The notes beneath the pieces were generated by a model. That model was given only the letters and a program-made list of their open reading frames with translations, searched no databases and had not been told where the DNA came from. From IMG/VR virus record IMGVR_UViG_2737471821_000008: DNA of 16,452 nucleotides, one strand, 5' to 3'. Both the position numbers and the translations under genes were made by a program. The stretch is from a virus. Its lineage: Duplodnaviria; Heunggongvirae; Uroviricota; Caudoviricetes. This document shows, in pieces, positions 1 through 16,452 of this stretch; within the stretch, counting starts at the first letter, position 1; every line of letters starts with the position of its first letter.

Positions 1-405
1 ATGGATCAGGTCGTTGTTTTTCAAAAGATGTTTGAGCAAGTGAGAAAAGAGCAAAACTTCTCCTGGTTTTATTCAGAATTAAAACATCACCGTATTGCAC
101 ATTACATTTATTATCTGGCTACGGATAACATCAGAATTATTACTCACGATGATACGGTTTTGTTATTAAGAGGAACCAGGAACCTGTTAAAAGTTAGTAC
201 GACCAAGAACCCTGCTAAAATAAAAGAGGCCGCATTGCTTCATATTTGCGGAAAATCTACATTTCGGGAATACTGTTCAACACTGGCAGGCGCGGGCGTT
301 TTCCGGTGGGTTACTGATGTTAATCATAACAAACGCAGTTACTACGCCATTGATAATACGCTTTTATATATTGAAGATGTAGAAAATAATAAACCATTAA
401 TCTAG
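1..405 (+). CDS. ycgX: DUF1398-family protein YcgX (chromosomal flank outside the prophage)
   Basis: Complete 134-aa ORF with ATG at position 1. I recognise the sequence as YcgX, and it sits next to iraM as in E. coli K-12. AT-rich. Confidence 0.6.
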   Translation: MDQVVVFQKMFEQVRKEQNFSWFYSELKHHRIAHYIYYLATDNIRIITHDDTVLLLRGTRNLLKVSTTKNPAKIKEAALLHICGKSTFREYCSTLAGAGVFRWVTDVNHNKRSYYAIDNTLLYIEDVENNKPLI

Positions 406-616
406 CTAAAGTTGGATACTTAAGAAATGCTTCATAATTCAGTAAGGCATTAGCATAATGGAAATAAAAGTGCAGAGACTATCTCTATGGATGATTAATA
501 CTGTCTTTTTATTGTCACCCATAAATAATCACCAGACTAATACTATCAACTTGATATTTGAAATGTGATCACTTGACTTTTGATACGTTATTTTATAACG
601 GTTAACATATTTATAA

Positions 617-662
617 AAACAACGGCCGTGCCACACGTCCGTTTCAATACTTAACGCACATG
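617..662 (+). repeat. Direct repeat copy 1 of an icd 3'UTR/terminator-like ~45-bp sequence
   Basis: By hand alignment 38 of 45 positions match 1481..1525 (aaacaacggNcgtg...ccgtttcaataNttaacNcacatg). No icd coding sequence follows this copy. Confidence 0.6.
621..643. terminator. Imperfect hairpin within repeat copy 1 (possible ycgX terminator)
   Basis: Arms AACGG/CCGTT plus CGTG/CACG with one mismatch and a CCA loop, followed by TTTCAATA. Weaker than copy 2. Confidence 0.35.
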
Positions 663-1104
663 TATTTTGGTTTAGTCATCATCCGGTTATATGTATTTTA
701 GCCAGGAACAGGTTAAATCATTCCTATATAACTCAAAAATTGAAACCTTATTCTCATGTCATGCTTATATTCATTATTATCGTTATATAAAAAGGCAACC
801 ATAATGTTTAGCAAATTGGCACAAAGTAGCATAAAGGCTATGTTTTAATTACAGGATGTTCAGTCATTTGAATGTATAACATTATAGCTAAACAAATCTA
901 AAACGAAGTCAATAATTTATTGCTTTCACAAAATCTCATTTTGTTTAACATCCATTGAGATTCCTTGCTTTAAATTTTATTTTATATAAGCCATCATTTT
1001 AATTAATTTATTTTTTTGAGGGGGGGGTAATATACTCATATGCAAAATCAAGAAATAAACATCCTAATGAACCATATTAAATACCGTGGGATAAGACATA
1101 ACAA

Positions 1105-1428
1105 ATGAAGTGGATAGTAATTGACACGGTAATTCAACCTACATGTGGTATATCTTTTTCAGCCATATGGGGTAATATGAAAATGATCATCTGGTATCAA
1201 TCTACTATATTTCTCCCTCCTGGCAGTATATTTACACCGGTTAAGTCTGGTATTATCCTTAAGGATAAAGAATATCCTATTACTATTTATCACATCGCAC
1301 CATTCAACAAGGATTTATGGAGTTTACTCAAAAGCAGTCAAGAGTGTCCTCCAGGAGAAAGCAAAATAACAAATAAATGTTTACATAATAGTTGCATTAT
1401 AAAAATATGCCCATATGGGCTCAAGTAA
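1105..1428 (+). CDS. iraM: Anti-adaptor protein IraM (stabilises RpoS by inhibiting RssB)
   Basis: 107-aa ORF with ATG start, [22 protein letters not shown]..., recognised as IraM. Lies between ycgX and the icd fragment as in K-12. AT-rich, about 38% GC on a sampled line. Confidence 0.7.
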
Positions 1429-1480
1429 TGGGCTTCATATAAATATGCTCGATATGCTATTAATAATATCCACATAAATA

Positions 1481-1525
1481 AAACAACGGGCGTGTTATAC
1501 GCCCGTTTCAATATTTAACACATGG
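1481..1525 (+). repeat. Direct repeat copy 2 (authentic icd 3'UTR and terminator)
   Basis: Immediately 3' of the icd stop codon (1531..1533 on the - strand). Pairs with 617..662. Confidence 0.6.
1485..1507. terminator. Bidirectional rho-independent terminator (icd terminator; also downstream of iraM)
   Basis: Stem AACGGGCGT / ACGCCCGTT with loop GTTAT. On the - strand it is followed by GTTTTATTTAT (U-tract), on the + strand by TTCAATATTT. Confidence 0.6.
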
Positions 1526-1530
1526 AGAGA

Positions 1531-1695
1531 TTACATGTTTTCGATGATCGCTTCACCAAACTCTGAACATTTCAGCAGCTTAGCGCCTTCCATCAGACGT
1601 TCGAAGTCATAAGTTACGGTCTTGGCATTGATTGCGCCTTCCATACCTTTAACAATCAGGTCAGCCGCTTCAGTCCAACCCATATGGCGCAGCAT
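1531..1695 (-). pseudogene. icdC: Displaced 3' fragment of isocitrate dehydrogenase gene (icdC-type), prophage attachment junction
   Basis: The - strand translates to [54 protein letters not shown], the Icd C-terminus. icd similarity ends abruptly at about 1695. No start codon or upstream icd sequence. Confidence 0.85.
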
Positions 1696-1928
1696 TAGTT
1701 AGATGACTAAATCATAACTATTTGACATAGCAACATAATTTTACTAATTTGCATATAACTCATTAGCTCTTAGCATTTCTATAACTCATTGATTATAAAC
1801 ATGTGTTTTTGAGTTTTGATAACCATTTTTAGCATAAAAATAGCTGTTAACATTTGCAGAAATTAAGATCAGAGAAAATTTTTACCCTGTAGGGTATTAC
1901 GTCTTAAATGTGACTTTAATAAACAATT

Positions 1929-2762
1929 TTATTTCTGTAATCGGTTTATATTAACGTAAAGCATCTCGATTAGTTCTTTTGCATTTTTACTATAGTGTAA
2001 TTCTCTATGACAATTCGGACAAAGGGCAACACAGTTATCTGTTGTATCAGCACCACCTGAAGACAGGGGAATTACATGATGCACTTCCAAATATGGGTTT
2101 CCATCATTTAAATAAAACGGAGCATTTTTACCACAGTTTTCACATATACCTTTACTTTGCTGTAAAATCCAAGCTTTTACCATCGGGTCTCGAACATAAA
2201 CTTTTTGTAGTCTTTCTACCTCAACTGGTTTCCTGGAGCCCTCGGGTTGACTCAACGTTTTCTTAATTAATTTACTAACCCTCATATTCAGAAGCGATTC
2301 ATCATCTGTAGGCTGTGAAAGCTCTGATAGTTCTCCACGTATTATAGACGCCCAAAAACTGTCACTATAAATTCCTGGAACATTTATCAATATTCGTTTC
2401 GTTCTATTGCCGGAAGGAATTTCCTTTCTCCCCGTACGACTAAAATAAGCCTGATAACCACACATCTTCAAGCGTATATCGCGGGGGCTATTACCAATCA
2501 AAGTAAAATATTCACCAGGATGGATTTTTCTTTCATCCAAAGAATGCATATGTTTTCTGACTGATGATGACGCCAGATATACTACGACTTGGGATACACC
2601 AGAATCAACCAACCGTTCAATGATATAATCAAGAGCGATATTGTAATCTTTGTTTCTGTCACCCGGCCCCCACGACTCAAGGATTAGACCATAAACACCA
2701 TCCTCTTCACCTATCGAGCACTCAGCTTTCAGTTCAATTCCATTATTATCAAAAACATGCAT
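1929..2762 (-). CDS. mcrA: 5-methylcytosine-specific restriction endonuclease McrA (HNH family)
   Basis: 277-aa ORF with ATG start. C-terminal HNH motif ...CENCGKNAPFYLNDGNPYLEVHHVIPLSSGGADTTDNCVALCPNCHRELH. Recognised as McrA. GC about 45% on sampled lines. Confidence 0.9.
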   Translation of the reverse strand: MHVFDNNGIELKAECSIGEEDGVYGLILESWGPGDRNKDYNIALDYIIERLVDSGVSQVVVYLASSSVRKHMHSLDERKIHPGEYFTLIGNSPRDIRLKMCGYQAYFSRTGRKEIPSGNRTKRILINVPGIYSDSFWASIIRGELSELSQPTDDESLLNMRVSKLIKKTLSQPEGSRKPVEVERLQKVYVRDPMVKAWILQQSKGICENCGKNAPFYLNDGNPYLEVHHVIPLSSGGADTTDNCVALCPNCHRELHYSKNAKELIEMLYVNINRLQK

Positions 2763-2868
2763 AATATTAATCTTTAATCAATTTTTCACGACAATACTAC
2801 TTTTATTGATAAAATTGCAACAAGTTGCTGTTGTTTTACTTTCTTTTGTACACAAAGTGTCTTTAACT

Positions 2869-3423
2869 TTATTTATCCTCTGCAGGAAACCTCTTATACA
2901 AAGTTGACACACCAACATCATAGATAATCGCCACCTTCTGGCGAGGAACTCCTGATGCAATTAATCGTCCGGCCTGTGCCCATTGTTCTGGTGTAAGTTT
3001 GGGACGACGTCCACCAATTCGCCCCTGTGCGCGAGCAGCTTCCAGTCCAGCTTTTGTTCGTTCAACAATCAGTTCACGCTCCATTTCAGCCAGGGCACCC
3101 ATCACATGAAAGAAAAAGCGTCCCATTGGTGTGCTGGTATCAATTGAATCCGTCAGACTACGAAAGTTGATGCCTCGTTCGCGCAACTCCTCCACCAACA
3201 CGACAAGATGCCGCATACTACGCCCCAGCCGATCCAGCTTCCAGACAACCAGAGTGTCACCTGCCGATAATGTCCTGAGCAGTTTTTTCAGTCCCGGCCT
3301 TTCGGACTTTGTGCCGCTTATCTTGTCTTCAAAAATCAGCTCGCATCCTGCACAGTTCAGCGCATTACGTTGTAGATCTGTGTTCTGGTCATTTGTTGAT
3401 ACGCGTACATAGCCAATAAGCAT
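2869..3423 (-). CDS. pinE: Serine DNA invertase Pin (Gin/Hin/Cin family)
   Basis: Start placed at the internal ATG giving MLIGYVRVSTNDQNTDLQRNAL... (184 aa), the typical invertase N-terminus with catalytic Ser in RVST. The ORF track begins 12 codons upstream at 3459. Confidence 0.9.
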   Translation of the reverse strand: MLIGYVRVSTNDQNTDLQRNALNCAGCELIFEDKISGTKSERPGLKKLLRTLSAGDTLVVWKLDRLGRSMRHLVVLVEELRERGINFRSLTDSIDTSTPMGRFFFHVMGALAEMERELIVERTKAGLEAARAQGRIGGRRPKLTPEQWAQAGRLIASGVPRQKVAIIYDVGVSTLYKRFPAEDK

Positions 3424-3477
3424 GGTAGCTCCCCCTGACAAAAGCAGGAATGATGCCATTTGCTCGTTATTTCTGCA

Positions 3478-3503
3478 TTTTCATAAACGTTGGTTTGGGA
3501 GAA
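3478..3503. repeat. Pin recombination (crossover) site, pin-proximal copy
   Basis: TTTTCATAAACG-TT-GGTTTGGGAGAA resembles the 26-bp gix/hix architecture. The inner half-site GGTTTGGGAGAA is a perfect inverted repeat of 5362..5373. Confidence 0.7.
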
Positions 3504-4022
3504 GGTGCTCCAGCTATTGGCGTTCCGTTCTTCTGGCCGTCCGCCGCAATGCCAAATACTGTAATCGACAGTTGGTCCAGTATGGTGTTTTTGAAGTTCA
3601 ACGGCGCGAAATTCTCTGCCACTGATTACCCTGTGCTGGCGAAAGTGTTTCCGGCGCTAGCATTACCTGACGCACGGGGTGATTTCATTCGTATCTGGGA
3701 TGATGGGCGCGGGATTGATGTCGGACGTACCCTACTTTCAGGGCAATCACACACAATTATGGATCATGCACACAATATGGAATTGTGGACGGGGGACGGG
3801 CTTGCCGCAGGAAGTGCACGGGAAGGAGTAAACCCAGGAATACTGGCTACATACGGTGACGGGGGAATAGTTAAAACGGACGAACCCGGTCTTAAGGTGC
3901 CTTCCTCACTACGAGCTCTTAGCTCTCGTAGTGTTAAACGTTATGGTGAAATTAGTGGAAATGTAGATACAGAAACCCGTCCACGAAATATTGCATTCAA
4001 CTTTCTGGTGAGGGCTAAATAA
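3491..4022 (+). pseudogene. stfE: Silent alternative tail-fibre C-terminal cassette (StfE-type variable domain), in-phase with the stfP constant region after inversion
   Basis: ORF 3450..4022 runs through the crossover site (…VGLGEGAP…) and ends …ETRPRNIAFNFLVRAK, a typical fibre C-terminus. The ATG at 3450 lies outside the segment and is not a real start. The core TT occupies codon positions 2 and 3 in both cassettes. Confidence 0.65.
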
Positions 4023-4615
4023 TGATACCTGTTTTTGATGAAAATGGGCTGGCTACAGTGCCGGGCGATATGCGTTGTTTTTATTATAATGCAGTAACGT
4101 ATGAATATACCGGCTGGTCTGATGAATATATTAATACTGGCGTAAGTATACCCGCCTGTTCCACTGGTATTGACCCGGGCGAAAACATCCCGGGAAAAGT
4201 GGCAGTATTTACGGGTAAGGGATGGAGCCATGAAGAAGACCATCGCAATGAGACCGTTTACTCAACTGAAAATGGCGCAGCTGTTACAGTGGATTATATC
4301 GGTGCCATCAAAGACGGTTATGTCACGCTTTCACCGTTAACGCCATACGATAAATGGGATGGTGAGAAATGGGTGACGGATACCGAGGCACAGCATAGCG
4401 CCGCAGTAGAAGCGGCAGAAGCACAGCGCCAGTCGCTGATTGATGCTGCAATGGCTTCCATCAGTCTGATTCAACTGAAATTACAGGCTGGGCGGAAGCT
4501 GACGCAGCCAGAAAACACCCGACTTAACGCTGTGCTGGATTACATTGACGCGGTGACGGCAACAGATACCAGCACAGCGCCGGATGTCATCTGGCCTGAA
4601 CTGCCGGAGGCGTAG
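4022..4615 (+). CDS. tfaE: Tail fibre assembly protein (alternative cassette partner)
   Basis: 197-aa ORF, ATG overlapping the cassette stop (TAATG). Tfa-family conserved C-terminus …TSTAPDVIWPELPEA. Confidence 0.8.
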   Translation: MIPVFDENGLATVPGDMRCFYYNAVTYEYTGWSDEYINTGVSIPACSTGIDPGENIPGKVAVFTGKGWSHEEDHRNETVYSTENGAAVTVDYIGAIKDGYVTLSPLTPYDKWDGEKWVTDTEAQHSAAVEAAEAQRQSLIDAAMASISLIQLKLQAGRKLTQPENTRLNAVLDYIDAVTATDTSTAPDVIWPELPEA

Positions 4616-5024
4616 GCCATTCAATATCTGGCGCACCGGAAGTATCGATCAGCTCCAGTGCGTCCAGATAATCCAGCCACAAATTATATTGCGCCAGTTC
4701 ATCACCTTTCAGACGACCAATAGCGGCTTTACCGGGCCATTGCTTACTGTTCATGTATTCGTTGGCCTGATTAAGCAATAATTGCCTTTCTGATTCTGCC
4801 TGTTGAATAAGTTCTTCATGTGATGGTGGAGGTATTAGTGCCCATGTGGGTAATCCATTTTTTCCTGCAACACGAATTTTGTCATCTGGAGGCGTATTGA
4901 TTGCAAATTCATTATAAACATCATCACTGACAGCCAGAGCATCATCTGGCCATGAATTTGCATTAATGTAATCATCCTTAAGTGCAGGATTCACAAAAAT
5001 GTTTAAAGATGGACTATAAAACAT
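4587..5024 (-). CDS. tfaP: Tail fibre assembly protein (expressed orientation)
   Basis: 145-aa ORF immediately after stfP (TAATATG junction). C-terminus …TSGAPDIEWPTPP is similar to TfaE. Its 3' end overlaps tfaE convergently over 4587..4615. Confidence 0.8.
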   Translation of the reverse strand: MFYSPSLNIFVNPALKDDYINANSWPDDALAVSDDVYNEFAINTPPDDKIRVAGKNGLPTWALIPPPSHEELIQQAESERQLLLNQANEYMNSKQWPGKAAIGRLKGDELAQYNLWLDYLDALELIDTSGAPDIEWPTPPAVQAR

Positions 5025-5025
5025 A

Positions 5026-5664
5026 TTACACCCCTATAGCGATATAACGACCTAATACAGCGTTTGCAGCAGTCGCTATGCTTGAAAAACCGCGGAACTG
5101 ATTTGATGTAATTGCAGAAGCCGACAGGATTCCTGCGCCTGAAGGTGTATGCCCCACATGACTAACTATCATTCCATAACATGCTGACGGAAAGGCAAAA
5201 GGAAAATCGTTAAGATATCCGGCATCTTCACCACCAGACCCACCAAATCTCGCCTGCCCCCACTGAATAATCAGTGTTCTCCGGGAACCTGAAATAATTA
5301 ACGGGATCGTTACATACCCATTCAGGCCAATGACACCCGATGCAGTGCCAGCCAGAGATAATTCTCCCAAACCAAGGTTTTCGAGAGCCGTTTTCACCGT
5401 GCCATCCGATTTGATATCGCCAAACGGATTCTTGCGGCTTAACAGCAGCGCACGAAGCGCGGTAAGCAGCTGGTCGTGCCGCCCCTTCTCCAGGCTGGCA
5501 CCGGATGCCTCCACCACGCTGCAAAGCTCCTCCTGCAACATGTCAAAGTAGTCATCATCCAGATCGGTGGCAGGCGTGCCGGTCTGGGGGTTACCACGGG
5601 TAAAACCGTTCTTACCCGCGCCGAACTTATCCTTCTGCGCGGTTTTCGTGTCTATACGATGCAT
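5026..5664 (-). CDS. stfP: Side tail fibre protein (constant N-terminus outside, variable C-terminus inside the invertible segment)
   Basis: 212-aa ORF with ATG start. N-terminus …GNPQTGTPATDLDDDYFDMLQEELCSVVEASG… is typical of phage fibres. The crossover site lies at codons …LENLGLGE. Confidence 0.8.
   Translation of the reverse strand: MHRIDTKTAQKDKFGAGKNGFTRGNPQTGTPATDLDDDYFDMLQEELCSVVEASGASLEKGRHDQLLTALRALLLSRKNPFGDIKSDGTVKTALENLGLGELSLAGTASGVIGLNGYVTIPLIISGSRRTLIIQWGQARFGGSGGEDAGYLNDFPFAFPSACYGMIVSHVGHTPSGAGILSASAITSNQFRGFSSIATAANAVLGRYIAIGV
5362..5387. repeat. Pin recombination (crossover) site, distal copy inside stfP
   Basis: TTCTCCCAAACC-AA-GGTTTTCGAGAG. Its reverse complement matches the 3478..3503 site. 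Confidence 0.7.
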
Positions 5665-6252: not shown

Positions 6253-7301
6253 GAAATCGTCCCCAGTACCGCCAGTTCATTTTTTGCAATGGAGATATTG
6301 TCTGCCGGTGCAAGCAACTGATGGCTGTATTCCCCGTTCGCACCGGAAATCGCCTCACTGATACGCGATACCTTCAGTTCTCCCTGCGGATAACCATCAC
6401 GCAGCAGGAACGAACGCAACTCCGCGGTGATGGCAGCCCGTATTTCCGGTGTGTCCGGCGTCACACGGATATGAAAATCCACCGTATGTGCCACCGGCCT
6501 GAACACATACAAATCAGAGCCTGCCACCGGGGCCAGTGGCTCGATATGTTGTCTTGCCGCCGTTTCCGTTGATTCTTCCGGAATGGGATTAATCAGGTCA
6601 CTGCTGGCAATCATCACACCGACAGTTCCCGTTCCCATCCAGTGACGGTATGTCCATGCGCGGGTAATGCCGGGCACTTCTTTAGCCCAGACAACATAGT
6701 CCCCGTCAGCCCCGCCCTGCGGCGTCCAGTAATACCGCTCAATGACGCGGGCGCGCCACGTTTCCAGCTCTTCAGTATCAAATCCGCCTGTCAGGGTGTC
6801 AGCCACACCGGAAGACGGCAGACCATTCACCGGCGTGACCAGGATTAATGCCGTACCGTCGTCAGCATTACCGACCGCACCTGCACTTGAGCAGGCGATC
6901 GGCACGCGCAGGACACCACCGGAGCTGGTTGCATCGTCAGTTGTCGTGTACTGCACCAGGTCATCGCGCTGAATAACACTCCCGGCGGTCACCTTCAGGC
7001 CATCGCTGACACCTTCCCAGCGCATATACCCACTGGCAACCGTGGCTCCCTTGCGCGGACACCGTTTCATCGCAGCATGTCGCGCCAGCCAGGACTCATC
7101 GCACAGGTCAGGCAGCATGTTCATTGCCAGATAATCGATGTAACCGTAAACCGTATGCAGCGCCGCCGCATACACCTTTGCCCGCACGTCTTCATCCATG
7201 CGCCGGAGCGTGTCGCTGACGTCCAGCCTGGCGAATAAATCGTTACGGAGCATACTGATATTTTCTGCCAGCGTCGGGCGCTGAAATTCACTGTCCGCCA
7301 T
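6243..7301 (-). CDS. jayE: Baseplate J-like protein (Mu gp47 / P2 gpJ family)
   Basis: 352-aa ORF with ATG start. Position and size fit the baseplate wedge protein that precedes gp48-like and fibre genes. The symbol follows e14 nomenclature from memory. Confidence 0.7.
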
Positions 7302-7602
7302 GCGTTATCGCACTCCACAGATCATCAAAAGAAATCATTACCGGTCCGTCACGACGCCAGAGGGTGATACTGTTACCCAGTTCATTAATCCCGGTGCGGC
7401 GGATATCCAGATCAATACGGGACACCACGCCGTCATCAATCATCCATTGCAGGCATTCGCGGATACCCGCCCCGGCAGCGCCCAGAGCAAGGCTGGAGAC
7501 TTCTTTCTGAAACCCCTTAAGCTGACGCTGCATACCTTTAAGCGGGCCGGACAGCCTGTCAACGGCGGTGATGATGGCTTTCAGCTGAAAATTATCAGCC
7601 AT
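7288..7602 (-). CDS. Short chimeric ORF: tape-measure-like N-terminus joined to an unrelated C-terminus (probable deletion product)
   Basis: Strong SD (GAGGAG, 7-nt spacer) and ATG. N-terminus MADNFQLKAIITAVDRLSGPLKG fits the usual tape-measure start, but the ORF is only 104 aa and its end overlaps the baseplate-J start. Confidence 0.4.
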   Translation of the reverse strand: MADNFQLKAIITAVDRLSGPLKGMQRQLKGFQKEVSSLALGAAGAGIRECLQWMIDDGVVSRIDLDIRRTGINELGNSITLWRRDGPVMISFDDLWSAITHGGQ

Positions 7603-8010
7603 GCTTCATCTCCTCATTTATACGGACGGCCTCTGCCTCCAGATCAGCAAAGTGGGAAATAGCCGTCCGGCGAAGTTCAAGGGGGTTTAATTTCCAGAAC
7701 CACGCGACATTGTAGAATCGCTTCCGGAGGTCTCTTCCGTCTCCAAGCCGGTAAAAAAACGCATTACAATCATGCCTGCCTTGAAAATATCCAGCTTCGT
7801 CATCTGCGCTGCAGACGAGCGCGGGATCCCGGCCAGAAGCGGGATATATTTCAGCGCTACCTGACTGTCCATTTTCATACCACCATCAGGTGAAACAGAG
7901 AAAGGGAACCCCAGCGCCTCAATCTCGTCATACGTAGGCTCACGTATTTCCAGCACATGCAGTGTTTCTTTGTGGGCGATGATCGGTTTTTTAAGTACAA
8001 GCTCAATCAC
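7595..8010 (-). CDS. Tail assembly chaperone, long form made by -1 programmed frameshift (G/GT or E/E' type)
   Basis: From the slippery site the -1 frame stays open for 52 codons (YRLGDGRDLRKRF…EEMKHG*) and stops at 7595..7597, just inside the next gene start. This is the standard chaperone to tape-measure layout. Confidence 0.45.
7687..8010 (-). CDS. Tail assembly chaperone, short form
   Basis: 107-aa ORF. Its first codon is GTG, overlapping the tube gene stop (GTGA). Sits between the tube and tape-measure positions. Confidence 0.5.
   Translation of the reverse strand: MIELVLKKPIIAHKETLHVLEIREPTYDEIEALGFPFSVSPDGGMKMDSQVALKYIPLLAGIPRSSAAQMTKLDIFKAGMIVMRFFTGLETEETSGSDSTMSRGSGN
7753..7759 (-). 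other. Slippery heptamer U-UUU-UUU for -1 ribosomal frameshifting
   Basis: Coding strand CGT TTT TTT ACC (R F F T) in the chaperone 0-frame, 22 codons before its stop. Confidence 0.45.
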
Positions 8011-8363
8011 TGGTAATCCCCTTCTTCACCGTGGAACTCAAGATCAACCGTGCCTTCTTCGGCATTATGGTTCGCTTCGCCGTGCAGCCAGGCAGACGAC
8101 AGTACATAGACCTGACCGTTCGCCAGCTCGGCAGTGATGGTCATCTCATCAGACGAGGTGATTTTGCTCACCGGAAAATTCTTCGGCACCTTGAAGGTCC
8201 CTTTGACATAGGGCGCACGGTGAGTTTCCTTGCGGTCCACTGAACCGTCCAGGCCGATGATGTCATCATTGACCGTCCTGTTCATGGGCACCTCAATGCC
8301 GCCGGTCAGCGATAGCTGCTGACCGTCAATTTTGAAATAACAGGTTCCCCCGATACGGGCCAT
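8007..8363 (-). CDS. Tail tube protein (Mu gpM-like)
   Basis: 118-aa ORF with ATG overlapping the sheath stop (TAATG). Size and position immediately after the sheath gene. Confidence 0.6.
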   Translation of the reverse strand: MARIGGTCYFKIDGQQLSLTGGIEVPMNRTVNDDIIGLDGSVDRKETHRAPYVKGTFKVPKNFPVSKITSSDEMTITAELANGQVYVLSSAWLHGEANHNAEEGTVDLEFHGEEGDYQ

Positions 8364-9859
8364 TATGCAGACTCCTCTGAATACTGAAGACGGAACTGGT
8401 TAACCACGGCAAAGACACGCAACTGGTTAACATAGTCAGGCGGGAACAGCGTGTTCAGGCGGTTCGGATCGCTGGCATCACGCTCCACAACCAGGTACTG
8501 CTTAAACAGTTCGTAGTTTTCCACGATCCCCGCACGCTCAAGCTGACGGTAGGTTGCCAGCAGTTCCCCTTTGATCACCGCCGGGGTGACAATCGCCTGA
8601 CCGGGACCAAAGCGGGTACCGTCACTGGCAAGCTTGTGACGCCCGTACTTACTGGTAATGACGGATTTCAGTTTGCGCAGTACATACGCGCTGGTATGCA
8701 GTGTCTCACTGTCGAGGTAGCTGTTATCCGCAACCCCGTAAGCGTTTTTCCTGTACGTGGTGACATCACGCTGAATGCGCAGTACCCCGCTTTCGACATA
8801 CGCCGTTGCCACGCCATGAGACAGCAGGGTCTGTTGTTCGGTCATCGTGAACCGTTTCCCCTTCGGCGCAGGCAGCATACCCACCATCTCACCGGTCTGC
8901 GTGGGACGTGCCGGATCGTTGCGGATAAACACCGCTGCGCGGGCGGTACGGCTGGCTGCCAGCTCGTCGGCAGGCGTCTGGGTCTCTTTTTCGTACCCCG
9001 CCAGGGTGATGTGCTGCTGGTTAAACTGGTCACCTGCGTTCACCAGTTCTGACAGTGTGCCGGCCTTTGCCGTATACACATGACCATACAGCTGACGCGC
9101 ATAGCTCCAGCGACCGCTGGTATCGTTCATCTCGGTCACCAGCGTGTTAACAGAGGCCGTGTCGTTGAACGGCAGACCGATATAATCAAACGGCTCATCC
9201 GCCATTGCAGCCACCGCGCCGGTGAGAACCGGAGCGCCCGTTCCGGCGGTCCCCGTCGCCACGGCAATCTGTACGCCCGCTGGCAGCACTTCGCCCCCAC
9301 CGAAGCCGTAGTAATTGAGGCTGACAGGAATTTCATTCCCGCAAAGCCCCTTATGGCGAGCGGTCAATGTAACCACACCAGCCGAAGATGAGGCCGTAAA
9401 CGGCAGGGCCGGAACGGCATTGATGGCATCTTTGATACTGCTGGCAATCGTCGCGACGTTATCGCCGTTGGTCACCGGTGCCTGCACGCGGGTACGTCCC
9501 ACATAAACATTCACCGTGCCGGTTTCGGTTGCTGCCCCGGTCACCGTCAGCGTAACTGTTGCCGCCGCGCCTGTGGATTCAGGAACGGCAATCACATACA
9601 GCTCGCCAAACGGGTCAGTCTGGCGATAAGCCTCGACCATACGCGCCAGCTGACTTCCCGCACCACAAATCTGGCGTGCATAGTCTGCCGACGGCATCAG
9701 TACCAGACTGTTGGCAACAATCTCTGCACCGTTATTGGCATGACCAATCAGCAGCGATGCTCCGCTGTCCTGTGCAGTATTCGCCGCCTGATTATCCATT
9801 TCCGCATAAAACAGCGGAACCAGCGTATTCGACGGAATGGTGTTAAAGCTTATCGTCAT
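8363..9859 (-). CDS. Contractile tail sheath protein (Mu gpL-like)
   Basis: 498-aa ORF with ATG start, MTISFNTIPSNTLVPLFYAEMDN…, of the size and character of Mu-type sheath proteins. Confidence 0.8.
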   Translation of the reverse strand: MTISFNTIPSNTLVPLFYAEMDNQAANTAQDSGASLLIGHANNGAEIVANSLVLMPSADYARQICGAGSQLARMVEAYRQTDPFGELYVIAVPESTGAAATVTLTVTGAATETGTVNVYVGRTRVQAPVTNGDNVATIASSIKDAINAVPALPFTASSSAGVVTLTARHKGLCGNEIPVSLNYYGFGGGEVLPAGVQIAVATGTAGTGAPVLTGAVAAMADEPFDYIGLPFNDTASVNTLVTEMNDTSGRWSYARQLYGHVYTAKAGTLSELVNAGDQFNQQHITLAGYEKETQTPADELAASRTARAAVFIRNDPARPTQTGEMVGMLPAPKGKRFTMTEQQTLLSHGVATAYVESGVLRIQRDVTTYRKNAYGVADNSYLDSETLHTSAYVLRKLKSVITSKYGRHKLASDGTRFGPGQAIVTPAVIKGELLATYRQLERAGIVENYELFKQYLVVERDASDPNRLNTLFPPDYVNQLRVFAVVNQFRLQYSEESA

Positions 9860-10013
9860 CGGTGTTCACCTTTTTATTCACGCGCCGGATATCACCCGCT
9901 ACTTCACGGCGCAGCCAGTAGTTGTTCTCGTCAACATTTCGCCCTTCGGCGGGCAAAAGGTCGCCGCGGGCAGGGTCAGGAACTGACCGCCCTTTAACAG
10001 GTTTGACAAACAT
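9843..10013 (-). CDS. Small conserved Mu-like tail-module protein (DUF2635-like); absent from the ORF track (under 60 aa)
   Basis: Hand translation gives 56 aa, MFVKPVKGRSVPDPARGDLLPAEGRNVDENNYWLRREVAGDIRRVNKKVNTDDDKL*. SD GAGGA sits 5 nt before the ATG. Overlaps the sheath start by 17 nt. Confidence 0.4.
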   Translation of the reverse strand: MFVKPVKGRSVPDPARGDLLPAEGRNVDENNYWLRREVAGDIRRVNKKVNTDDDKL

Positions 10014-10021
10014 GAGGATCC

Positions 10022-10582
10022 TCAGGAAGGAAGGGTTATTTCGGTGTGATGTTCGATATCGCCGTCAGGCCCGTTACCGGGCTCGAGATAATCAACATCA
10101 ATCGCCAGCGTTTGCAGTTCATCCAGACTGTTCAGATCATCCTGCTGGCGGGTATCGTCTTCAGTCAGCTCGCTGATGACCGAAAAATCGAACTGATAAA
10201 TCAGCTCATGACGATTCAGATCCAGCAGCGTGCCGCCGTCATAGGTAATCGGGTTACCGCACGCTTCCGGGTTCCAGCCCAGCAGGGCCTTAAAGAGCAT
10301 CTGCCGGACATCGTCCACCACATCATACGAGGCAAACTGACCGCGCTCATCACGCCCGTTACTCAGTATGACAACCACGGAGAAGCCCTCTTTCAGCTCC
10401 TGCCAGTAGTCGGTCTGGCTTTTGTTTTCTCCCGGAGAGTCATCACCCGGTACCACATACGCCGCCGGGAGTCTCAGCTTTCCGACCTCCGGCAGATTTT
10501 TGAACTGGGCCGCGCCTGCCACCCGGTTTTCAAAATACGGGCAGCGGGCACGCAGCGCAGCAATAACAGGCGTCAGTTTCAT
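10022..10582 (-). CDS. Virion morphogenesis / head-tail joining protein (Mu gp37-like)
   Basis: 186-aa ORF, MKLTPVIAALRARCPYFENRVAGAAQF…, with ATG overlapping the upstream remnant stop (ATGA). Position matches the gp36-gp37-gp38-sheath order. Confidence 0.5.
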   Translation of the reverse strand: MKLTPVIAALRARCPYFENRVAGAAQFKNLPEVGKLRLPAAYVVPGDDSPGENKSQTDYWQELKEGFSVVVILSNGRDERGQFASYDVVDDVRQMLFKALLGWNPEACGNPITYDGGTLLDLNRHELIYQFDFSVISELTEDDTRQQDDLNSLDELQTLAIDVDYLEPGNGPDGDIEHHTEITLPS

Positions 10583-10674
10583 CTGTGTCGTCGCTCCGGC
10601 TTCAGTGATTTACGCAATTCCCGCGCCAGAAAATAGCGTGTCCAGCTGCGGTTCTTTTCAAGAGTTTCCACCAT
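10579..10674 (-). pseudogene. C-terminal remnant of the gene preceding gp37-like (deletion scar)
   Basis: Only about 31 codons (…MVETLEKNRSWTRYFLARELRKSLKPERRHR*) are plausible protein. Upstream in the same frame the translation is low-complexity (GGAKRRRSHHRGASGGSG). Confidence 0.3.
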
Positions 10675-10789
10675 GAAGTTATTACGTGGAGCCAGTCGCC
10701 AGCCGCTGCCACCGGATGCACCACGATGATGACTACGACGACGTTTTGCTCCTCCCCGGACACCAAAAAACAGAAATGCCGGATAGAAG

Positions 10790-11110
10790 TCACCAGAGAT
10801 CATCCGGTTCGCGCAGACCGTCTTCACGGCCTTTACGCAGGAAGCCCACAAACGCCTCTTTATGCTCGGTGGCCAGTTTATTTTGCGCTCCACCAGCCGG
10901 ACGTTTCAGCTCAAGCAGCTCTTTTTCAAGGTCGCTTTTGAGATTTTCCAGCTCGCTGAGTTTCCCGTTCAGGGTTTCCACCTGCCCGGCAAGCTTGCCT
11001 TTTTCCTGCTCAATCGCATCCACGCGCTTGTCGTTCTTTGCTTTGAAGTCGTCAAACTTCTGCTGCAGCTCCTGCGCGACCTGTTCGACATCTTTAATAT
11101 CAACCGCCAT
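10790..11110 (-). pseudogene. Major capsid protein, N-terminal fragment only (HK97-type delta domain)
   Basis: Strong SD (AGGAGA) and ATG right after the protease gene. 106 aa of coiled coil (…VETLNGKLSELENLKSDLEKELLELK…EHKEAFVGFLRKG) then a premature stop. No capsid body is encoded downstream in any frame. Confidence 0.55.
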
Positions 11111-11124
11111 CGTATTTCTCCTGA

Positions 11125-11775
11125 TTAGAAGTTCAGATTTTTCAGTGCATTCAGTGCAGAGCCCACATCCTCAGCGTCGCGCAGGGACAGTGCGCCATAG
11201 CCCCCGGCCATGAATGCTTTGGCCTGGGTACGGGAGAGTCCGACATCACGCAGGACTCTTTCGATTTTTTTCTGTTCGGGGATTTCCCCGCGGGCCAGTG
11301 CGTTCTTGACGTCGCTGATCCGCGCCTCGTCGTTAGACGGGAACGTCACCAGGCTGACTTCCCAGAGGTCGATTTCTTTCAGCAGAAAGGCTTCTTTGCT
11401 CCGGTCGTATTCCCAGTCTTTCAGGACGTACCCAATAGAAAGGCCGGTTAACGAACCGGCCTTCATGTGTGCATGTGCGCGTTTTGCGAGGGGATCATCA
11501 TCAATAAGCAACCGTCCCCTGACGTAAAGCCCGACATCGTCTTCCTTCATTTCGGTGTAAACACCGATGGGTTCATCCATGCGGTGCTGCCAGAGCAGCG
11601 CAGGTAACGCTTTTCTGTCACTCCACGCCCGCAGGGAAGCAGCAAATGCCCCGGACATCACCACATCATCGTGGCTGTCCTTTACACCAAAGACGGAGCC
11701 ATACCCTTCAAACTCACCGGAGTCACTGACAGATTTCAGACTCAGCGGTACATCAAGACGTTGTTTCGTCTGCAT
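11125..11775 (-). CDS. Prohead protease (HK97 family)
   Basis: Start placed at MQTKQRLDVPL… because SD AAGGA precedes it. The track's start at 11811 has no SD and overlaps the portal by 59 nt. Confidence 0.7.
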   Translation of the reverse strand: MQTKQRLDVPLSLKSVSDSGEFEGYGSVFGVKDSHDDVVMSGAFAASLRAWSDRKALPALLWQHRMDEPIGVYTEMKEDDVGLYVRGRLLIDDDPLAKRAHAHMKAGSLTGLSIGYVLKDWEYDRSKEAFLLKEIDLWEVSLVTFPSNDEARISDVKNALARGEIPEQKKIERVLRDVGLSRTQAKAFMAGGYGALSLRDAEDVGSALNALKNLNF

Positions 11776-12994
11776 TGGCGTTATCCTTCTGCTTACCGGC
11801 TTTACTGCCATCGGAGGGTTTCGTGGTCATGTTCATCGGTGTGAGATAGACATCACCACCGGGACGCGGATTCATATCTTCCAGGTCGCGGCAGTCATTG
11901 GGAGAGTAAATTCCCCAGTTGATCCCGGTGGCGTAGGCTTCAAAACGGGACTTCATATCCCCGCGCAGTAACGCCCCGGCGTTAAATTTGGCGTAATAAA
12001 CGCCCTGCTTACTTTTTCGTACCAGTCCGGTGTTGATCCGCTGTTCGATGCGGGTCAGATACGGCACCAGTGAATAGTTGATAAATCCCAGCCCCAGCTC
12101 TTCGATATTGTTGAAGGTGGCGCGATCGGTGTTCTGCACCATGTGCAACGGCACCCGGAACAGACGACAGATTTCTTCAAGCTGAAACTTGCGGGTTTCC
12201 AGGAACTGGCTGTCCTCGGCGTTCAGCGCCATCGACTTCCAGTCCAGCCCCATCTCAAGGATCATCGGGCGGTGAGCATTGCCAAGCCCGGTGTGACGCT
12301 CCTCAAAATCTTTCTTCAGGCGCTCATAAGCCTGATCTGACAGCGTCTGCTCTGTACGCAACACACCCGACGTCACCGCGCCATTGCTGAACAGTCTGGC
12401 CCCGTGCTCTTCGGTCGCAGCTGCCAGCGATATTGCCTCGCGGGCATAGGCGATGGGATTCAGCCCCACCAGTCCGTCCAGCGTCAGCGTGCGCACATGC
12501 CAGATATCCTCCTGGCTCAGTACATCCGTGGAGCCATCCGGGAATGTGACCTGATAGATCGGCTCCCAGCTACTGTTAAGCTTCGGTACCACACAGCCGG
12601 GATCGACAGGCAGCAGTTCAGCCACTTCGCCAAATGCTTTCACTTTGTAGGCGTAAAAGTTTCCCCGCAGGCACAGACAGGTGACCACCAGCTCCCAGAA
12701 CTCCTGCGGCGTCATATAGCCATTGGGATGCGTGGAGATCAGTTTATGCAGACGTTCGCCGGTGGCTCTCTGCTTCAGGCTGCCGTTCAGGTGATACAGA
12801 TTGCAGGGCAACATCCCGACCGACTCTGCCAGCACTCTGACGCAGGAAAAAACCGCCGTCAGTCGCATGGCCCGCTGACTGCTGATCTGCTTTCCGGTAT
12901 AGGTGTCGTAGGACAACCCGATGGCATCCGCCAGCTCTGCTGGCGTGGTCACCGGTGCGTCACTTTTTCGTTGAAATAATCCCGAAAAGAACAC
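11753..12994 (-). CDS. Portal protein (HK97 family)
   Basis: 413-aa ORF with GTG start preceded by GGAGG (6-nt spacer), overlapping the stop of the upstream small gene. Portal-family conservation throughout (…PIAYAREAISLAAATEEHGARLFSNGA…). Confidence 0.85.
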   Translation of the reverse strand: MFFSGLFQRKSDAPVTTPAELADAIGLSYDTYTGKQISSQRAMRLTAVFSCVRVLAESVGMLPCNLYHLNGSLKQRATGERLHKLISTHPNGYMTPQEFWELVVTCLCLRGNFYAYKVKAFGEVAELLPVDPGCVVPKLNSSWEPIYQVTFPDGSTDVLSQEDIWHVRTLTLDGLVGLNPIAYAREAISLAAATEEHGARLFSNGAVTSGVLRTEQTLSDQAYERLKKDFEERHTGLGNAHRPMILEMGLDWKSMALNAEDSQFLETRKFQLEEICRLFRVPLHMVQNTDRATFNNIEELGLGFINYSLVPYLTRIEQRINTGLVRKSKQGVYYAKFNAGALLRGDMKSRFEAYATGINWGIYSPNDCRDLEDMNPRPGGDVYLTPMNMTTKPSDGSKAGKQKDNANADETTS

Positions 12995-13176
12995 TATTTA
13001 CCTCCACCAACAGACAGCTGTGTACGGTCGAGATATCGCGCTACCAGCCACGACCAGAACAGGCACAACGCCCCGGCAACAACAAACCCCGCCGGGGGAT
13101 AAATCAGCCAGGCACCATACGCCAGCAAAAGCGCCCCCAGCACGCCCACCAGAGGCGCGAGAATCAGCATGATCAT
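12994..13176 (-). CDS. ymfR: 60-aa predicted two-helix membrane protein between terminase and portal (YmfR-like)
   Basis: ATG with [67 protein letters not shown] has two hydrophobic stretches. Symbol from memory of e14 YmfR (60 aa). Confidence 0.5.
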
Positions 13177-13187
13177 AATTACCTCAG

Positions 13188-14921
13188 TTAAAGCGAGCGG
13201 ATCCCATAGGACTCAATGTGGTCAGACAGCGTGTCTTCTTTCTCGTACAGCATGGCTCTGCCAACCGCCATAATCAGCGCAACTGCACCGTCAATTTTGT
13301 TTTCCGCCTGCTCTTTGACGGGTTTCACCACATCATCGTTACCCGGAATGGTTTTGCCGACCACATTGCCGATACACCAGGTCATGATGGGATTGCCATC
13401 ATGATGAAAGCGCCCCGATTCAATTGCCGCTTCCAGCTCTTTCATCGGGTCGGACATGTTGGTGTAGTTCTGAATGATAGTGACGGGATTCAGGTCTTCA
13501 TCAGCAAGGTCATGTGACAACCCGGTCGCCCCGAAGGGGTCGATGGGTGACTCACTGACCGGGCTGATTTTGTTCGCCGCTTTGGCCTCCTCGAGGATGT
13601 AGCGATAATCCACCTCCGCACCATCGGTAACGGTCAGAACGCCCATTTCCACCCATTTCTGAAAGCGTTCGGCTGTCCGGCGATCTTCATTTTTCTCGAC
13701 GCTGTACACCGTGTCATACGGTACCCAGAAGCGCGGAGCCACACTGTAGTAATGCGTTTTACCGTCAATCTCGCGGGTATAAAGTCGCGCCATGCTGTTC
13801 ATATCCAGCTTACGCGCCAGGTCAAAGGCCAGAATGCACGGTTGCCCCTCGAACTGCTCAAGGGTCAGTGATTTATCCTCGCAGCTCTGCCAGCTCACCA
13901 GGTTGAAATACGCCGAACGCGCCGACACCCAGATATTGAGGTGTTTTGTTTTAAAGACGTTTGCCAGACGGGCGTTATTTTTCGCACGCTGCTGCTGACT
14001 TAACAAAAATTCGCGATAAACCGACACGCCAATATTCGGGTTAGCTTTTTCCAGCACCTGCGGGTCGGTCCAGTCATCGCCTTCGTCAACGGTATAGATG
14101 ATCCCGAACAGTTCATCGTTGGGTACCGAACCGTTGAGCATCTCGATAACTTCCCGCCGCTTGTCGTAGCACGGCCCCTCAATGTTGTACCCGGCGGTGG
14201 TGATGGCCCACATCAGTGGCTGACGTCGCGCGCCCATCCCGGTAAGCATCGTGGTATAAAGCGCATCGGTGGCGTGCTCGTGATATTCATCCACCACCGC
14301 ACAGTGGGGTGATGAACCATCACCGGGGTTACCGATCAGCGGTTCAAACCGCGCGCCATCCTCCGGACGGTTCATGTTTGAGGCGTTAACCTCAATCCCG
14401 AACGCTTCCGTCAGCATGGGTGTGCGTTTACACATCAGTCGCGCCGGGCGAAAGACTTCCCACGCCTGTTTCTCTGTCGTGGCACCGGAATACACTTCCG
14501 CGCCAAACTCGTTATCACAGGCAAAACAATACAGGGCAACACCGGCAGAGATTGCCGATTTGCCGTTCTTACGGGGGATTTCGGTATACACCTCCCTGAA
14601 GCGGCGCAGCCGGGAGCCTTTATTGACCCAGCCAAACGCACAGCAGATCACAAAGAGCTGCCACGGTTCCAGCGTGATGGGCATCCTCTTGAATGCCCAC
14701 TCCCCCTTGGTGTGTGGCAACAGCTGAATAAATTTCGCGGCCCGTTCAGCCAGGTCCTTGTCGAAGCGGTAACGAAACGACTTACTTTTTTCCGCCATCA
14801 GGTCATCAAGATGGCGCTGGCAGGCCTGAATCACAAACTGGCAGGCCACAATCTTTCCGCGCACGACATCACGGGCATACTGATTGGCAGCATTTACGTT
14901 GGGGTAAGATTTCCGGCTCAT
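13188..14921 (-). CDS. Terminase large subunit
   Basis: 577-aa ORF with ATG overlapping the TerS stop (ATGA). N-terminal ATPase region (…[18 protein letters not shown]…AVVDEYHEH…) and C-terminal nuclease domain. Confidence 0.9.
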
Positions 14922-15412
14922 GATTCGATGATTTTCAGAAACGGGTTAGTGGCTTTCTTCTGCCCCGCCAGGCCAATCAGACGCTGGCGGCTGCTGGGGT
15001 CGAGTCCGAGCATTGCCCCCGTGCTGCTCATCTCGGACTCCTGTTCTTTCTTGGCGGTCAGCTCCGGATTTTTGACCATGCCACCCATTGCACCGGTGAT
15101 GGTGTTGCCCTGTCTGGCAATATTTTTCACGGCACGCCGCCAGAACTCGTAGGCCACGCACCACCGCTCAAGCACCGCGAGGTCAGTCACGCACAGCAGG
15201 CCCTGACCGCAGAGTTCTTTGGTTGTCAGTTGCCACATGATCGTGGCGAGAGGGAGATCTTCTTCAGCGAACCACTCCGGTGGCTCAACACCTTTGATGG
15301 GCGTAAAAACAGGTTCATCTTTATTCAGGGCTCGCTTGCCGGGGTTTCCGGCCAGCGCCTTGCGCGCCGTTGGCTTGGGGCGACGCCCGGAACGCCCCGC
15401 CGTTCCAGCCAT
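14918..15412 (-). CDS. Terminase small subunit (P27 family)
   Basis: …[34 protein letters not shown]… is the P27-family signature. I chose the ATG at 15412 (SD AGGAG, 8-nt spacer) rather than the track's GTG at 15421. Confidence 0.7.
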
Positions 15413-15462
15413 ATGCGGCACTCCTGGTTAAATTTCATTTTTCGCGGGTATAAAAAAACGAT

Positions 15463-15511
15463 GGGGCGGGCAGTCCGGAAGACGTCAGGTCACAGGGATT
15501 TGACCCGCCCC
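15463..15511. other. GC-rich inverted repeat in the HNH-TerS intergenic region (candidate cos / packaging-initiation region)
   Basis: GGGGCGGG at 15463..15470 and CCCGCCCC at 15504..15511 flank a 33-bp spacer containing the palindrome GACGTC. A T7 run follows on the - strand. Confidence 0.3.
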
Positions 15512-15537
15512 TCCCCTCTGGCAGTGGGAACTGGTTC

Positions 15538-15888
15538 TTACTTAATCCGTTCACGGGCCGTCTTCGCCTTATGACACGGCCAGCACAGACTCTGCAGATT
15601 ACAGTCGGCATCAGTGCCGCCATGCGCTTTAGGGATGATGTGGTCAACAGTTTTCGCCTCACGCACCACACCAGCGCGCAGACATAACTGACATAAACCT
15701 TTGTCACGTTTCAGCACACGCGCGCGGATAACGTCCCACTTCGAACCGTAGCCGCGCTGATGACGGGATTGTCCTGGCTTGTATTGCTTCCAGCCTTCGC
15801 TTTTGTGGCTTTCGCAATAACCTGACGGGTCAGTGGTGGTACGGCGGCACCCGCGAACACGGCAGGCTTTTGGAGTTCGTGGTGGCAT
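15538..15888 (-). CDS. HNH endonuclease (packaging-associated)
   Basis: 116-aa ORF with ATG start, Cys-rich with the motif …DHIIPKAHGGTDADCNLQSLCWPCH…. Immediately upstream of TerS as in HK97-like packaging modules. Confidence 0.85.
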   Translation of the reverse strand: MPPRTPKACRVRGCRRTTTDPSGYCESHKSEGWKQYKPGQSRHQRGYGSKWDVIRARVLKRDKGLCQLCLRAGVVREAKTVDHIIPKAHGGTDADCNLQSLCWPCHKAKTARERIK

Positions 15889-15945: not shown

Positions 15946-16452
15946 TTACTGTCCTAAAGCACTTTTTGCCAATATTGAAGCAATTGAAGCAAACGTCGGA
16001 TTTTCCAATAGCTTTTGCCAAAGGCTTTTAACCTCTGGATCATTGCAATGCTCTATAGCATCATGTAGTTGTTGAATGGTTATATTCTTTGTGATCGAAT
16101 TGTCATTACCGGCTTGAAAATCACCACCAGCATTAATAGCACCGTTAAACGTCAAATGGGTCGTAATCTGCTTCGGCTTCTCTTTTACATCCAATGCCTT
16201 CACTATCAATACCGCCAAATGTGAGTAGCCAGGGCAACCAGCCTCGAGACTAATTTGTACCTCGTAATCAAGCACTTCAAATAGTCTTTCCCTGTCGACC
16301 ATTTTTTGCACAATGATATCGCCGATATTAAATGGACATAAGTCACTTTCAATAAGAATATACAATCGACCTTTAGATGAGTCACGTTGACCATAATAGG
16401 TGGATGAATTAAAGGTAAAAGTATCTGGATAGAAAAATTGATCTGGTCGCAT
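15946..16452 (-). CDS. Hypothetical 168-aa protein (AT-rich moron upstream of the packaging module)
   Basis: Complete ORF, ATG at the window edge. MRPDQFFYPDTFTFNSSTYYGQRDSSKGRLYILIESDLCPFNIGD… has no motif I recognise and no hydrophobic helices. GC about 35-38% on sampled lines. Confidence 0.55.
   Translation of the reverse strand: MRPDQFFYPDTFTFNSSTYYGQRDSSKGRLYILIESDLCPFNIGDIIVQKMVDRERLFEVLDYEVQISLEAGCPGYSHLAVLIVKALDVKEKPKQITTHLTFNGAINAGGDFQAGNDNSITKNITIQQLHDAIEHCNDPEVKSLWQKLLENPTFASIASILAKSALGQ

Follow-up and report, generated by a model that had tools for sequence, protein, structure and literature searches.

Inactivation of prophages by internal deletion is textbook knowledge, and the element e14 of Escherichia coli K-12 is its classic example. 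This cryptic prophage is integrated at icd and carries ymfR, beeE, jayE, stfE/pinE and mcrA. In the HK97 capsid protein gp5, the N-terminal delta domain is scaffold-like and is cleaved off by the prohead protease. Published work relates SfI, SfV and e14 to one another (PMC3636060). The temperate Shigella/Escherichia myoviruses SfI, SfII, SfIV and vB_EcoM-720R4, together with intact prophages at the e14 site in E. coli strains PSS-08-2 and D2, match the element analysed here with 99.4–99.8% DNA identity over the portal gene, the protease gene and the 5' end of the capsid gene, and they share the gene order terminase, portal, protease, capsid, connector, head closure, Neck1, tail terminator, sheath. 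Unlike our element, these phages and prophages encode a full capsid protein of 401 aa and all of the head-completion proteins, and the deletion that we describe below is found in none of them.

The element lies in a stretch of 16,452 nucleotides (IMG/VR record IMGVR_UViG_2737471821_000008), which was analysed as a whole and which we refer to as the window. At its left end are ycgX (1..405), iraM (1105..1428), a remnant of icdC, mcrA (1929..2762) and pinE (2869..3459), and positions 1-3503 are 99.97% identical to the corresponding flank in PSS-08-2 and 99.2% identical to that in K-12, both of which carry these same genes. Integration is at the 3' end of icd, with the icdC remnant left behind and iraM and ycgX beyond it, as in e14/SfI-SfV-like prophages. 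The element also has the syntenic HK97-type head module and Mu-like contractile tail module of such prophages, with 97–100% identity over all retained parts, and the retained genes stand in the order seen in the D2 and PSS-08-2 prophages, except for the inverted Pin segment. Given the ycgX, iraM and icdC flanks and the mcrA and pinE cargo, which are those of K-12 e14, we identify the element from its sequence as an e14-family prophage at icd in E. coli.

The inverted segment holds the tail-fibre and tail-fibre-assembly genes beside pinE (3485..5380) and has 19-nt inverted repeats at its ends (3485-3503 and 5362-5380). Its orientation is the reverse of that seen in the otherwise 99.9–100% identical copies in PSS-08-2, in GCA_012750075.1 and in two further loci, L002 and L007. 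Since the segment is reversed relative to near-identical copies, Pin-mediated inversion appears to be still active, or to have been active recently, in the defective element. Towards the other end of the window, homology to the PSS-08-2 prophage stops at 15888, a position that the comparison marks as a mosaic boundary upstream of the HNH and terminase genes. A 168-aa ORF at 15946..16452 has no Pfam family recorded for it, and is common only to Logan and NCBI contigs of this lineage.

The likeness to K-12 e14 extends beyond the site of integration. Both elements have icdC, iraM and ycgX as flanks, and mcrA, pinE and an invertible tail-fibre segment as cargo; their common parts are 97–99% identical in DNA, and both owe their defective state to internal deletion in the morphogenesis module. 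The deletions themselves differ, however. In K-12 e14 a single, larger deletion extends from about codon 136 of the portal gene to a point within baseplate gene J (window 12587 to 7033), so that the protease, capsid fragment, tail terminator, sheath and tube are all missing, whereas our element keeps all of these and has two smaller deletions with other junctions. The K-12 deletion spans both deletions of our element. Either separate events led to the decay of the two elements, or older scars were wiped out by the deletion in K-12.

The coding strand of all genes in the head and tail part of the window is the minus strand. Read along that strand, they are a large terminase (13188..14921, 577 aa), a YmfR-like small membrane protein (12994..13176, 60 aa), the portal (11753..12994, 413 aa), an intact HK97-family S78 prohead protease (11125..11811, 228 aa; PF04586 with E=1.2e-31, and annotated as such in relatives), a truncated major capsid ORF (10790..11110, 106 aa), the 3' remnant of a Neck1/tail-completion gene (10579..10809, including the stop codon), an intact tail terminator (10022..10582, 186 aa), a DUF2635 protein (9843..10013, 56 aa), the tail sheath (8363..9859, 498 aa) and the tail tube (8007..8363, 118 aa). 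Taken from its first ATG, the 228-aa protease ORF overlaps the portal gene by 59 nt (window 11753..11811); the start used by RefSeq and Logan gives a protein of 216 aa.

An initial annotation of the window, made from the letters alone, proposed that an internal deletion had removed the capsid body and the head-completion genes. Alignment to intact relatives, the check that it suggested, bears this out as a single clean loss of 2,138 bp with its breakpoint at 10809/10810. As the reference we used the intact prophage that occupies this icd site in PSS-08-2 (L004), with that of D2 (L001) as a second reference. By blastn, window 7464-10810 corresponds to L004 13007-16353 with 100% identity over 3,347 bp, and window 10803-15888 corresponds to L004 18484-23569 with 98.98% identity over 5,087 bp; such identity of the flanks is not due to chance. 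Missing from the window is L004 16354..18491, the length of which is not a multiple of three, and comparison with the D2 prophage gives the same outcome at 97% identity. Placed by blastn and by base-by-base comparison with L004, the junction has no inserted bases, and its exact microhomology is 2 nt (TC, plus strand) within an imperfect 8-mer (TCCGGTTC versus TCCAGATC), although the parental microhomology may differ from this by a base or two, given that the true progenitor is not among the sequences compared and that the nearest right flank is 99–99.8% identical. No long direct repeats bounding the deleted segment were found at the breakpoints in the intact relative. This anatomy points to a RecA-independent excision from the late operon, in which a single event of illegitimate, microhomology-level recombination, or of replication slippage, would have joined capsid codon 100/101 to Neck1 codon 92/93.

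The deletion took capsid residues 101-401, a 66-aa gene (phrog_1020, unknown function), a gp6-like head-tail connector (PF05135), a head-completion/head-closure protein (PF05521) and codons 1-92 of the 168-aa Neck1/tail-completion gene; on these identities the annotation in intact relatives, Pfam and PHROGs agree. A tblastn search with all of the deleted proteins found no second copy of any of them elsewhere in the window. This includes the capsid body, and it disposes of the possibility, allowed for in the initial annotation, that the element encodes an intact capsid protein at another position.

Two features of the junction might suggest an artefact of assembly or scaffolding, namely that its carriers are short-read contigs of 11-16 kb and that it is missing from complete genomes. 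When window 9800-12000 was compared by megablast with 5,426 complete E. coli genomes, 1,327 matched, with at most 54% of the query covered per match, and the homology always ended near window 10803. None of the 5,426 genomes has the head junction (0 of the 1,327 that match the head region); only intact versions occur. Megablast against 50,697 phage records likewise returned intact versions only, and an exact search for the 25-nt junction did not find it in the GTDB species representatives. Against an artefact, however, at least four assemblies, obtained independently through different runs and pipelines, share the junction at 100% identity (Logan SRR7257343 and SRR2239619; NCBI GCA_013074845.1 and GCA_054243855.1), and there is no repeat able to cause an assembly collapse. 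Given four assemblies with an identical junction, we consider mis-assembly excluded, and the probability that the junction is an artefact of either kind to be negligible.

The truncated capsid ORF begins 14 nt past the stop codon of the protease gene, and a Shine-Dalgarno sequence, AGGAG (11118..11122, minus strand), can be read 7 nt upstream of its ATG, so that the description of the ORF as well initiated was apt. Its first 100 residues are identical to the N-terminus of the 401-aa major capsid protein of D2 and PSS-08-2, tblastn placing capsid residues 1-101 at window 11110..10808. The final six residues, EPDDLW, are foreign and out of frame, and are followed by TGA, giving the end at 106 aa that the initial annotation had reported. 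The ORF matches PHROG 10, major head protein, with E=6.4e-6. In the intact capsid protein, the Pfam domain Phage_capsid (PF05065) extends across residues 115-398 (E=4e-79), while Pfam finds no match to PF05065 in the 106-aa ORF, and the fold that characterises the HK97 family is missing from it. Thus its sequence identifies the ORF as a fragment of an HK97-family capsid protein and not as a functional member of the family. Among solved structures, the nearest homologue of the intact protein of 401 aa is the capsid of RcGTA from Rhodobacter capsulatus (PDB 6tb9; E=9.6e-76 over residues 31-400), a structure that bears on the intact relative only, as nothing of the structured capsid fold is left in the 106-aa ORF.

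What remains resembles the delta domain of HK97 gp5, as the initial annotation had supposed. In both cases there are N-terminal ~100 residues with a long helix predicted ahead of Phage_capsid, and the domain is encoded right after, or adjacent to, an S78 prohead protease gene (here PF04586). Single-sequence AlphaFold (AF2) predicts a fragment that is nearly all helical, with helices at residues 5-69 and 77-96 and a block-mean pLDDT of 96-98 for residues 11-60, and the breakpoint lies near the expected boundary of the delta domain. Given the identity to capsid residues 1-100, the absence of a Phage_capsid match and the two predicted helices, we read the fragment as a scaffold-like N-terminal delta domain without any HK97 fold. 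The HK97 delta domain acts in cis, within a full capsid protein, whereas in our element a frameshifting deletion has parted the domain from the capsid body. As the strong ribosome-binding site is kept, the fragment could nevertheless be made as a stable helical product on induction. A scan of 10300-11400 for promoters and terminators found none on the coding strand, and no excess over shuffled sequences, so that the deletion does not seem to have created any new signal. Two antisense ORFs on the plus strand (10686..11213 and 10862..11128) overlie conserved coding sequence; their translations are rich in S, L and F, and we judged them to be spurious.

That the delta domain is retained essentially whole and helical, behind a preserved Shine-Dalgarno sequence and alongside an intact terminase, portal and protease, raises the question of whether the 106-aa protein works on its own as a scaffold, in an element that would be satellite-like and borrow its capsid and connector from a co-resident HK97-type helper. 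Stand-alone scaffold families do show weak resemblance, but below the Pfam cut-offs: Phage_scaffold (PF06810) and Phage_GPO (PF05929) score 16.6 and 16.7 bits against thresholds of 35 and 33.6, and generic coiled-coil families score about as high on the same ORF. Simple deletions are the sole difference between the element and intact phage at 99–100% identity, the frame breaks at the junction to add six junk residues, and the tail module is broken as well. The allele is limited to a handful of near-identical assemblies, the exact 106-aa protein being found on only 4 contigs in a collection of 15 billion proteins, which, with the head deletion in none of the matching complete genomes, also answers the suggestion that the protein might be a complete and conserved scaffold. 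Close relatives that have decayed further are without the whole region. We therefore consider a working scaffold, and with it a satellite-like element, to be extremely improbable.

Downstream of the junction, the initial annotation saw about 200 bp (10583..10790) with low-complexity translations in all frames, followed by a C-terminal remnant of 31 codons. Neither observation holds. Window 10582..10809 is one unbroken remnant of 76 codons, codons 93-168 of the Neck1 gene (NRMISGDFYPAF...RHR and then the stop codon), and is 100% identical to L004 at the DNA level. It was located by tblastn, and matches positions 93-168 of the 168 positions of phrog_879 (E=6.6e-38), whereas the 168-aa protein of the intact relative matches phrog_879, tail completion/Neck1, over positions 1-168 (E=3.4e-95). 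It was probably the basic, glycine-rich composition of the remnant that misled the first reading. Remnant and capsid fragment are in different frames, and an internal ATG of the remnant (10803..10801) lies 8 nt upstream of the stop codon of that fragment (10792..10790), such that translational re-initiation there is conceivable. The overlap on which the proposed translational coupling to a gp37-like gene would depend is real, the ATG of the next gene overlapping the TGA of the remnant as ATGA. That gene is an intact tail terminator (PF23840, E=2e-26, with a weak match to PF09646, Gp37) of the same length as in PSS-08-2 and D2.

The initial annotation had called the head deletion the second in the element, and a separate deletion of 5,041 bp is indeed present in the tail module. 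It corresponds to L004 7966..13006, with its junction at window 7464/7465 and a microhomology of 2 nt (TA), and with it went the bulk of the tape-measure gene, two baseplate genes, the DNA-circularization protein and the 5' portion of GP46. The scar is an ORF on the minus strand (7288..7602) that fuses tape-measure residues 1-46 in frame to GP46 residues 84-141, with a match to PF07409 in its C-terminal part; its product is listed in NCBI as 'hypothetical protein' (EFO3887989.1 and others). By megablast, this junction is also absent from the 5,426 complete E. coli genomes. It is shared, however, by the near-identical relatives GCA_012750075.1 and SRR1815630, which have further lost window 9038..15750 and 7831..8470. 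The larger of these losses covers the HNH endonuclease, the small and large terminases, ymfR, the portal, the protease, the capsid fragment and part of the sheath, and the smaller covers the tube, part of the sheath and the assembly chaperone. By their shared and additional junctions, the forms at the icd site make up an allelic series of progressive erosion. Both deletions in the window look recent, since all of its other structural ORFs have lengths equal to those of intact relatives.

A second functional reading must be weighed against this pattern of erosion, namely that the delta-domain fragment has been domesticated as a dominant-negative decoy. Superinfecting phages of the SfI/SfV/e14 type use capsid subunits that are almost the same in sequence, and the fragment would join these during assembly and so poison the making of heads. 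The fragment is a nearly complete scaffold-like domain, without the region where the capsid domain begins, and its translation signal is intact. Moreover, the same capsid protein has been truncated independently in Shigella flexneri SFJ17B, where EGM63536.1 follows the capsid sequence to residue 93 and continues for 15 unrelated residues to a total of 108 aa. This truncation is the only hint toward a retained function, and the sample is one of two, as other short members of the cluster are mostly labelled partial by their sources and probably represent contig ends inside the gene. Expression would require the late promoter of a repressed prophage; the late operon might be switched on by SOS induction, or in trans by the Q antiterminator of an incoming relative. 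There is no conservation signal, and related lineages have deleted the fragment entirely. We hold the decoy to be very unlikely, though if it were true, it would be a case of defence born directly from a deletion scar.

We are thus highly confident that what the region preserves is the scar of a deletion, in an e14/SfI-family prophage that is decaying at icd, and that its fragments would have no selected function. The frame-breaking junction, the near-identity to intact phage, the rarity of a clonal allele and the loss of the region in further-decayed relatives leave very little probability to any of the alternatives. Because the junction is out of frame, the capsid ORF reads six foreign codons and then stops, yielding the 106-aa helical fragment, and the best reading of both this ORF and the remnant of 76 codons is that they are fragments of pseudogenes. 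From the gene content, we infer that no capsid shells, heads or tails would be produced: heads could be neither built nor completed without the capsid body, connector and head-closure protein, and tails would be prevented by the loss of the tape-measure and baseplate hub genes in the second deletion. The element would be locked in as a cryptic prophage, its prohead protease left without a capsid substrate.

What we describe is prophage decay of the ordinary sort. The deletion allele is new, but defective prophages of this kind are well known, and the finding carries little weight alone. For annotation, it means that the 106-aa ORF is to be labelled as a pseudogene fragment of the capsid gene rather than as a scaffold protein. 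Beyond this, its modest value is that of a dated snapshot. The mcrA, pinE and tail-fibre genes are retained in every form examined, and an allelic series at one site, running from the intact prophage through that with capsid and tail deletions to the further-eroded forms, could be used to order the events of decay and to identify the genes that survive longest.
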